The notes beneath the pieces were generated by a model. It saw nothing but the letters and a program-made list of their open reading frames with translations. It was not told the DNA's origin and ran no database searches. A program made the position numbers and the translations under genes. A DNA stretch of 40,137 nucleotides from Escherichia phage phiHAO1-1: sequence record PP079211.1; one strand, given 5' to 3'. Position 1 is the stretch's first letter. Each line of letters opens with the position of its first letter. Below, one piece after another: positions 6,202-7,636 of the stretch.

Positions 6202-7245
6202 ATGACAACTATTAAAACCAACCCGCATCGCGCTGTAGATTACTCTGAGTCTGGCATTAAGAAGGCACTGGAAGCAGCCGGGTCTCTGGAAGCTGAAGTG
6301 AAGTACGATGGTGTGCGGTTGAATATTCCGGTATTCCCTGATGGGCGAACTGAATGGTTAAGCCGTGAGTCAAAGACGCTTCCAGCCTTAGACCATTTGT
6401 CAACAGTTGGTCAGGACATCGGAGCGTGCCGTGCGTCAGACTGGCGATGGTTCCTGAAGCAAGCAGGACATGAAGTATCTGGCCTGATGATTGACGGTGA
6501 GGTCATGGTCAAAGGTGTGGACTTCAACACGTCCTCAGGTCTTATCCGAACCATGTGGTCTGACAGCAAGAACTACAAGTGGAACGTGAACCCTAAGGCC
6601 GATATGGAGACCAAGAAGTCTAACAAGGTTCCATTCCAGATTAGCCCTGAGTTCCTACAAGTGGTCGTCTACGGGGTCATCGACCTTAACGTCATCCTCG
6701 ACCCGAAAGCCGAAGGTCCTATCCATAGCGTCACACGCCTGAAGGCCGAAGCTATCGTCCCTCTCCTCCAAAAATACTTCCCGGAAATCGACTGGGTTCT
6801 GTCTGAGTCACACACGGTCTACGACCTTGAGTCACTCAACTCCCTGTATGAAGAGAAGCGTCTGGAAGGACACGAGGGTCTGGTAGTCAAGGACCCGCTT
6901 GGTAAATATAAGCGTGGCAAGAAGTCAGGCATGTGGAAGATGAAGCCAAGCGAAGAGGCAGACGGTCACGTTGTTAGACCAGTATGGGGAACCGAAGGTC
7001 TCGCCAACGAAGGTCTAGTAATTGGTTTCGATGTTATGCTTGAGAACGGGCTGGCGGTCTCCGCAACTAACATTAGTCGCGCCCTTATGTCCGAGTTCAC
7101 AGAGAACGTAAAGTCAGACCCAGATTACTACAAAGGGTGGGCCTGTCAGATTACCTACATGGAGGAGACACCAGATGGAAGTTTGCGACATCCGTCATTC
7201 GACCAGTGGCGAGGGACTGAGGACAATCCTACAGTCAAGATTTAA
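6202..7245 (+). CDS. ATP-dependent DNA ligase (T7 gp1.3 homolog)
   Basis: 347 aa from ATG 6202 (GGAGA RBS); KYDGVR adenylation motif; EGHEGLVVKDP, KRGKKSGMWKMKP and DGSLRHPSF conserved with T7 ligase. Confidence 0.92.
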   Translation: MTTIKTNPHRAVDYSESGIKKALEAAGSLEAEVKYDGVRLNIPVFPDGRTEWLSRESKTLPALDHLSTVGQDIGACRASDWRWFLKQAGHEVSGLMIDGEVMVKGVDFNTSSGLIRTMWSDSKNYKWNVNPKADMETKKSNKVPFQISPEFLQVVVYGVIDLNVILDPKAEGPIHSVTRLKAEAIVPLLQKYFPEIDWVLSESHTVYDLESLNSLYEEKRLEGHEGLVVKDPLGKYKRGKKSGMWKMKPSEEADGHVVRPVWGTEGLANEGLVIGFDVMLENGLAVSATNISRALMSEFTENVKSDPDYYKGWACQITYMEETPDGSLRHPSFDQWRGTEDNPTVKI

Positions 7246-7636
7246 GGTTGACCGGACGGCTCCTTCGGGAGTCGCAAACCTGAAGGGTAAACACTTAGGC
7301 TATCGACGCAAGGATGGCTACTGGATTATAAACACAACCAAAGGTCAGCTCCTTGCACACCGGGTAGTCTGGGAACTAACTCACGGTCCGATACCGGAAG
7401 GAATGGTTATTGACCATATAAACAGAGACCCTTCTGATAACCGAATTGAGAACCTAAGGTGTGTAACTCAGGCAGTGAACCTGACAAACGTCGCCGTCCG
7501 TAGCCACTGCAAGTCTGGTGAGAAGTATGTTAACTTTGAGCCAAGGACTGGTCGATGGCAACTGCGGATAAAGCGTAAGTCATATGGTACGTTCGATACC
7601 ATAGCCGAGGCAGTAGCCTTAAGAGATTCATTATAA
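7175..7636 (+). CDS. HNH homing endonuclease with C-terminal AP2-like domain
   Basis: 153 aa; HRVVWELTHGPIPEGMVIDHINRDPSDNRIENLRCVTQAVN is a classic HNH core; GRWQLRIKRKSYGTFDT is AP2-like; strong GGAGGAG RBS 7 nt upstream; overlaps the ligase 3' end by 71 nt. Confidence 0.8.
   Translation: MEVCDIRHSTSGEGLRTILQSRFKVDRTAPSGVANLKGKHLGYRRKDGYWIINTTKGQLLAHRVVWELTHGPIPEGMVIDHINRDPSDNRIENLRCVTQAVNLTNVAVRSHCKSGEKYVNFEPRTGRWQLRIKRKSYGTFDTIAEAVALRDSL

Follow-up and report, generated by a model that had tools for sequence, protein, structure and literature searches.

A probable free-standing HNH-AP2 homing endonuclease gene at the junction of DNA ligase gene and early terminator in Escherichia phage phiHAO1-1

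The ligase-terminator junction

We analyzed a DNA stretch of 40,137 nt from Escherichia phage phiHAO1-1 (sequence record PP079211.1), a Kayfunavirus (K1F-like) phage. This whole stretch is referred to as the window, and its numbering is used unless stated otherwise. The features considered here are as follows.

5668-5681, + strand: preceding phage promoter core, upstream of the ligase gene
6202-7245, + strand: ATP-dependent DNA ligase gene, equivalent of T7 gene 1.3 (Pfam profiles, ORF list)
6940-7653, + strand: apparently imported patch matching Enterobacter phage vB_EclP_26 (sliding identity, mismatch maps)
7161-7167, + strand: Shine-Dalgarno (SD)-like GGAGGAG in the ligase codons Met-Glu-Glu of YMEETPDG, 7 nt upstream of ATG 7175
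7175-7636, + strand: probable free-standing HNH-AP2 homing endonuclease gene, 153 aa, orthologue of phiYeO3-12 gene 1.45
7246-7634, + strand: inserted cassette itself, 389 nt of purely coding sequence (from alignment against Emlis, ZCEC02, YIO1-1 and phiHAO2-2)
7412-7489, + strand: predicted HNH catalytic core D80-H81...N93...N102...N105 (phmmer alignment to 1U3E; conserved columns of 44 homologues)
7511-7633, + strand: predicted shortened AP2-type DNA-binding domain, residues ~113-153, three beta strands and a helix
7641-7668, + strand: hairpin with a U-rich tail, positional equivalent of the T7/T3 early terminator TE (fold z=-4.1; relatives; T7 and T3 TE positions)
7702-7715, + strand: phage-RNA-polymerase promoter core CTATCACTATAGGA, upstream of gene 1.6; a CR44b promoter is annotated at the same place
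2601, 5668, 7702, 8682, 17464, 20284, 21264, 25908, 33184 and 39441, + strand: all promoter cores found in the window

The ligase product matched the Pfam profiles DNA_ligase_A_M (E=6.5e-22) and DNA_ligase_C (E=7.7e-32). An earlier note, made from the sequence alone, had described a 153-aa ORF with an HNH core, beginning within the 3΄ end of the ligase gene behind a strong GGAGGAG ribosome-binding site. The ORF list contains this ORF at 7175-7636, its translation includes the quoted motifs HRVVWE, DHINRDPSDNRIENLR and AVN, and the GGAGGAG and ATG 7175 both lie ahead of the ligase end at 7245, as the note had it. The two ORFs overlap by 71 nt, the HNH ORF being read in frame +1 with respect to the ligase, and the first 24 HNH codons are encoded by these final 71 nt of the ligase gene. 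Given its matches to Pfam HNH_3 and PHROG 99, the ORF is a genuine intact gene and no chance ORF. A ligase-HNH fusion made by frameshifting was also considered; it would require a +1 shift, and no slippery site or other supporting signal was seen.

The hairpin that had been placed just behind the gene begins 4 nt after its stop codon. It comprises 12 bp followed by UCUUUG, folds at -25.7 kcal/mol with none of 200 shuffles folding as well, and is conserved in relatives. A simple terminator scan did not report this hairpin because its tail has fewer than 5 T in 8, and folding with shuffles recovered it. The statement that T7 has no gene at this spot also held, as the T7 ligase gene ends at 7554 and TE lies at 7588, with no gene between them. 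The promoter cores (CTATCACTATAGGA/G) were matched at 10 positions, exclusively on the + strand, compared with an expectation of 0.24 by chance. In vB_EclP_26, the stretch from the TE hairpin to the promoter of gene 1.6 contains ~80 extra nt, which are absent from the window and from the other aligned relatives.

A second, small hairpin, GGCTCC-TTCG-GGAGTC, lies just past the ligase stop codon (7257-7274). It was rejected as a terminator, being no more stable than shuffles (z=-0.59) and having no U tract. It is conserved between Kayfunavirus and phiYeO3-12 and encodes a conserved APSGV motif; its phiYeO3-12 homologue (1584-1599, numbering of L003) is annotated as 'putative TE' inside gene 1.45.

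The predicted protein and its known counterparts

The HNH core that had been read from motifs was recovered by profile searches: the protein matched Pfam HNH_3 (PF13392) at residues 60-102 (E=1.5e-22, 79.4 bits, cutoff 24.8) and PHROG 99, 'HNH endonuclease' (E=5.5e-44). The only solved structure found by sequence was I-HmuI (PDB 1U3E; phmmer, E=3.4e-4), in which D74, H75, N87, N96 and N99 align to D80, H81, N93, N102 and N105 of the window protein. Among the 44 aligned homologues, D80, H81 and N105 show no variation, and conservation reaches 90% or more at N89, N93 and N102. In the paper on the I-HmuI structure, these residues reportedly include the Asp-His pair that serves as general base in catalysis and Asn residues with metal-binding and structural roles. 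An AlphaFold2 model based on the 44 homologues reached a pLDDT of 88.5, with values below 50 only at residues 1-10; the HRVVWE helix and the beta strands upstream of Met77 were modelled at pLDDT 92-96, and the beta-beta-alpha-metal fold that characterizes HNH / His-Me finger endonucleases was found. As judged from sequence, the product belongs to the HNH / His-Me finger endonucleases and is a putative nuclease. A role of the HNH protein in DNA packaging was considered but rejected, given the location of the gene in the early region and its absence from most relatives; moreover, T7-like phages are not known to depend on an HNH partner for terminase.

The AP2-like tail proposed in the earlier note was supported by a different route. 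Neither the full protein nor its 48-aa tail matched Pfam AP2 (PF00847), even at E<=10; 24 of the 44 aligned homologues did match this model. Profile-profile comparison found homology to AP2 domains, together with a fold of three strands plus a helix. The last ~40 residues are thus predicted to form a shortened AP2 DNA-binding domain, an assignment that depends on profile-profile and fold comparison because the Pfam AP2 model has no direct match. The domain appears trimmed in that the strand 2-3 region is shorter and the helix ends at the stop codon.

The kind of gene, its family and its locus are already known, and the finding is an ordinary one, since the same gene has been annotated at the same spot in relatives since phiYeO3-12 gene 1.45. 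This gene (AJ251805, 7903-8358; annotated 'homologous to HNH endonuclease') is 66.4% identical at the amino acid level over residues 1-152 and overlaps gene 1.3. Like the window gene, it starts inside the last ~70 nt of the ligase gene behind GGAGGA(G/A) and encodes an HNH core with an AP2-like tail. However, it runs into the phi1.5 promoter and replaces the T3-type TE hairpin, whereas the window gene leaves the TE hairpin intact. Annotated orthologues include CLB_P1 gp1.45, KP32 gp9 and the 'HNH homing endonuclease' of JSS1, and many records label the gene an HNH or homing endonuclease. An ORF in vB_EclP_26 encodes a protein with 100% identity to that of the window, and a tblastn search of the window with the HNH protein found no second copy.

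Comparison with better-known systems places the protein further. I-HmuI, a nicking HNH homing endonuclease, is encoded in an intron of Bacillus phage SPO1, whereas the window gene is free-standing; the C-terminal modules of I-HmuI are helical and helix-turn-helix DNA-binding modules, whereas that of the window protein is a predicted AP2 domain. Proteins combining HNH and AP2 are a recognised family of homing endonuclease genes (HEGs) (PMC10448857), attributed to Magnani et al. 2004 as cited in PMC10448857 and including the ICP1 IPA-HNH genes. The window protein shares the architecture of this family, with an N-terminal HNH and a C-terminal AP2, but its AP2 is trimmed and lacks a direct Pfam AP2 match. 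Nuclease genes have been found at boundaries of genetic exchange between phages (PMC10448857), and the window gene, which lies at such a boundary (see below), matches this pattern. In the Kayfunavirus-like Hafnia phage Ca, a 397-bp HNH cassette lies between the lysis and large-terminase genes (PMC8861465). It resembles the cassette described here in its minimal size (~390-400 bp), in its overlap with adjacent genes (both neighbours in the case of phage Ca) and in being carried by some members of a single phage population and not by others (PMC8861465), but its locus and protein are different.

Occupied and empty sites and the mosaic flank

In an alignment of the ligase-to-TE interval of relatives, a comparison that the earlier note had proposed, close relatives either carry the gene or lack it, at a single fixed site whose boundaries are precise. 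In the empty sites of Emlis, ZCEC02, YIO1-1 and phiHAO2-2, the ligase TAA is directly followed by CTAAA(C/T)GTCAACCCAGTGG, which is the TE hairpin. The 389 nt of the cassette stand in place of the 3 nt 'CTA' between the ligase stop codon and this hairpin, and the stop codon TAA (7634-7636) takes one base from the cassette and its final two bases from the flank. The cassette has neither a start codon nor an SD sequence of its own. The gene had been described as inserted at the 3΄ end of the ligase gene; the locus is correct, but the cassette was inserted directly behind the ligase stop codon rather than within the ligase gene; the 71 overlapping nt, with the SD sequence and the ATG, are native ligase sequence that is also present in HNH-free relatives.

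The occupied site is the minority state. Coverage of the cassette was limited to 11 of 246 matching phage records, and 12 of 235 spanned the entire interval; the gene is missing from ~95% of matching relatives, including the type phage K1F, which an artificial empty-site query matches as one uninterrupted piece, and the closest genome, phiHAO2-2. The same polymorphism occurs in Teetrevirus, where phiYeO3-12 has the gene and T3 does not, and same-position orthologues are found in several genera (Teetrevirus phiYeO3-12, KP32-like Klebsiella phages, Kayfunavirus and others). Among IMG/VR viral contigs there were three close copies and two empty-site matches only, too few for statistics on linkage to the start codon. 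The flanks of HNH-free phages (ZCEC02, Emlis) are nearly identical to those of HNH+ phages, and the element has thus not swept the population.

The site also carries other states. Citrobacter phage CR44b (HG818823) has a deletion scar between the ligase stop codon and TE (about 1344-1390, numbering of L002), composed of 13 nt resembling an RDN8.1-type left end and ~32 nt from the HNH gene's shared right end. A second intact HNH-AP2 lineage occupies the identical site in Escherichia phages RDN8.1 (MN414250; about 1279-1761, numbering of L004, 160 aa) and TH16 (MT446393; 38898-39305). Its protein is 49% identical to the window protein, with the first 26 and the last 12 residues identical, and its gene starts from the same ligase-embedded position. 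The scar and the second lineage at one site fit a homing cycle of gain, decay and loss.

We compared the flanks of the gene with those of phiHAO2-2, which is 97.4% identical to the window over 92% of the first 25 kb, and of vB_EclP_26. The window is ~99-100% identical to phiHAO2-2 over 4200-5900 and has zero mismatches to it over 7638-7797. Between these, the patch of ~700 nt has only 9 mismatches to vB_EclP_26, and identity to phiHAO2-2 drops to 56-72% where the patch covers the ligase gene. The right breakpoint falls at 7638-7653, that is, in the 5΄ arm of the TE hairpin and at most 16 nt from the cassette end. The region thus shows phylogenetic incongruence with a co-converted flank, a vB_EclP_26-like patch lying in a phiHAO2-2-like backbone. 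A gene at the edge of such a patch is what homing would be expected to leave behind. If the cut fell near the junction, this would account for the asymmetry of the patch, since homology is immediate to the right and resumes to the left only ~300 nt upstream, where all three ligase alleles converge; a cut inside the 3΄ region of the ligase gene would fit the one-sided co-conversion tract equally well. The exchange could be a gain in the lineage of the window or a replacement in phiHAO2-2.

Window positions 5900-6700, which take in the region of gene 1.2 and two-thirds of the ligase gene from its 5΄ end, are only 39-89% identical to both phiHAO2-2 and vB_EclP_26; this stretch appears to be a further mosaic patch from a third source. 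As it differs from both comparators, more than one event may be involved.

Start codon, homing and alternative readings

The start of the gene has been annotated inconsistently, with four different starts chosen in GenBank. The models of vB_EclP_26 ('hypothetical protein, Gp2.8') and JSS1 are 77 aa long and begin at an internal Met, and those of CLB_P1 and PH1061 are 118 and 126 aa long; only an 80-aa C-terminal fragment is annotated in RDN8.1, and the gene is unannotated in SR04, Zappy and EFA-1. Records with inconsistent or missing gene models include OQ870567, OQ870568 and MT350292. Separately, Enterococcus phage EFA-1 (MT350292) and Acinetobacter phage vB_Aba_01KA (PV615262) have Kayfunavirus-type genomes that are 84-87% identical to this coliphage region, and their host labels look doubtful.

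We infer that translation begins at ATG 7175 by way of the SD sequence within the ligase codons. This ATG, which like the GGAGGAG is supplied out of frame by the ligase codons for MEETPDG, is the sole in-frame ATG, GTG or TTG ahead of Met77. The alternative is that the gene is real but starts elsewhere, only the part past the ligase stop codon being made and the ligase overlap being an accidental effect of reading frame; candidates would be internal or non-canonical starts, for instance CTG 7280 with GGGAG (7267-7271) ahead of it, or Met77. In its favour, the GGAGGAG is common to HNH+ and HNH- relatives, and in the latter the same SD sequence and ATG head a dead-end ORF of 24 codons ending in ...SRFN*. 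Moreover, CLB_P1 has an ATG where the window has CTG 7280, PH1061 has one just past the ligase stop codon, annotators used both, and the first ten residues are the poorly modelled part of the protein. However, a start at Met77, which already lies within the HNH_3 match, would remove the conserved HRVVWE helix and the confidently modelled beta strands. In all carriers examined (the window, vB_EclP_26, JSS1, CLB_P1, PH1061, phiYeO3-12, RDN8.1 and three IMG/VR contigs), a start codon is retained at the ligase-embedded position, heading an open frame of 153-160 codons. PH1061 keeps a GTG there despite a changed ligase codon (Ser for Asp), whereas the scar phage CR44b and the HNH-free T3 have ACG. 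A start elsewhere is consequently rather unlikely.

Two further readings concern what the gene is at present. In the part that does not overlap the ligase gene, dN/dS is 0.05-0.07 against JSS1, CLB_P1 and PH1061, at dS up to ~1, and the gene is under purifying selection. These values indicate that it is no decaying relic. An inactive remnant of an old insertion would accord with the relic known at this site, the CR44b scar, and with an AP2 domain short enough to drop below the Pfam model. Against it stand the conserved catalytic residues, the confident structure model and an ORF that is intact in all eight carriers read through (the window, five GenBank phages and two IMG/VR contigs), in addition to the substitution rates, and we regard it as highly improbable. 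The strong purifying selection and the same-position orthologues across several genera could instead suggest a domesticated nuclease, kept for the benefit of the phage and not for self-propagation, for example because it breaks down host or competitor DNA or promotes recombination close to the boundary of early and middle genes. However, an actively homing HEG, too, would be expected to show purifying selection. The gene is also absent from K1F, phiHAO2-2 and ~95% of matching relatives, it has left a deletion scar in CR44b, and T7 and T3 manage without it, so that domestication is improbable.

Considering these points together, the gene is very probably a free-standing HNH(HNH_3)-AP2 homing endonuclease gene, the Kayfunavirus copy of phiYeO3-12 gene 1.45. 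By analogy with the gene organisation of T7, it would be transcribed early by host RNA polymerase and also from the phage promoter at 5668, being the final gene ahead of TE and co-transcribed with the ligase gene downstream of that promoter. The AP2 tail and the N-terminal beta region would place the His-Me finger on the uninterrupted junction of ligase stop codon and TE in an HNH-free co-infecting phage, with a presumed target of roughly ...CAAGATTTAA|CTAAACGTCAACCCAGTGG.... By analogy with the HNH-AP2 HEG family (PMC10448857) and with I-HmuI, which acts at its own site, the enzyme would nick or cut this junction, and recombinational repair off the HNH+ genome would copy the cassette and flanking ligase sequence into the recipient. 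The carrier genome would be immune to its own enzyme because the cassette splits the target site. The junction is proposed as the target by analogy, and many free-standing HEGs cut some distance from their insertion point. Allele exclusion in co-infection by the putative endonuclease, raised in the earlier note, is plausible. A literature search for gp1.45 or gene 1.45 returned nothing relevant and no paper on the function of gp1.45.

We further suggest, as a tentative reading with slightly less than an even chance, that the coding-only cassette borrows pre-existing out-of-frame signals of the ligase gene (YMEETPDG) and that cores have been swapped between fixed ends at one homing site. Because the translation signals already exist out of frame in a conserved ligase motif, such a cassette would be expressible on landing. 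In addition, at least two HNH-AP2 lineages as diverged as those of the window and RDN8.1/TH16 carry the same borrowed N-terminal and C-terminal residues, which suggests that the endonuclease cores were exchanged between these ends. The coding-only cassette with its ligase-embedded signals, the second lineage with the same ends and the inconsistent GenBank starts may perhaps be newly spelled out here.

The practical value of the corrected gene model, 153 aa from 7175, is modest. The recombination boundary explains why the 3΄ end of the ligase gene of this phage does not match that of its nearest relative. For K1F-like phages, the pair of occupied and empty alleles, together with a synonymous knockout of the start codon, provides compact material for tests of homing.
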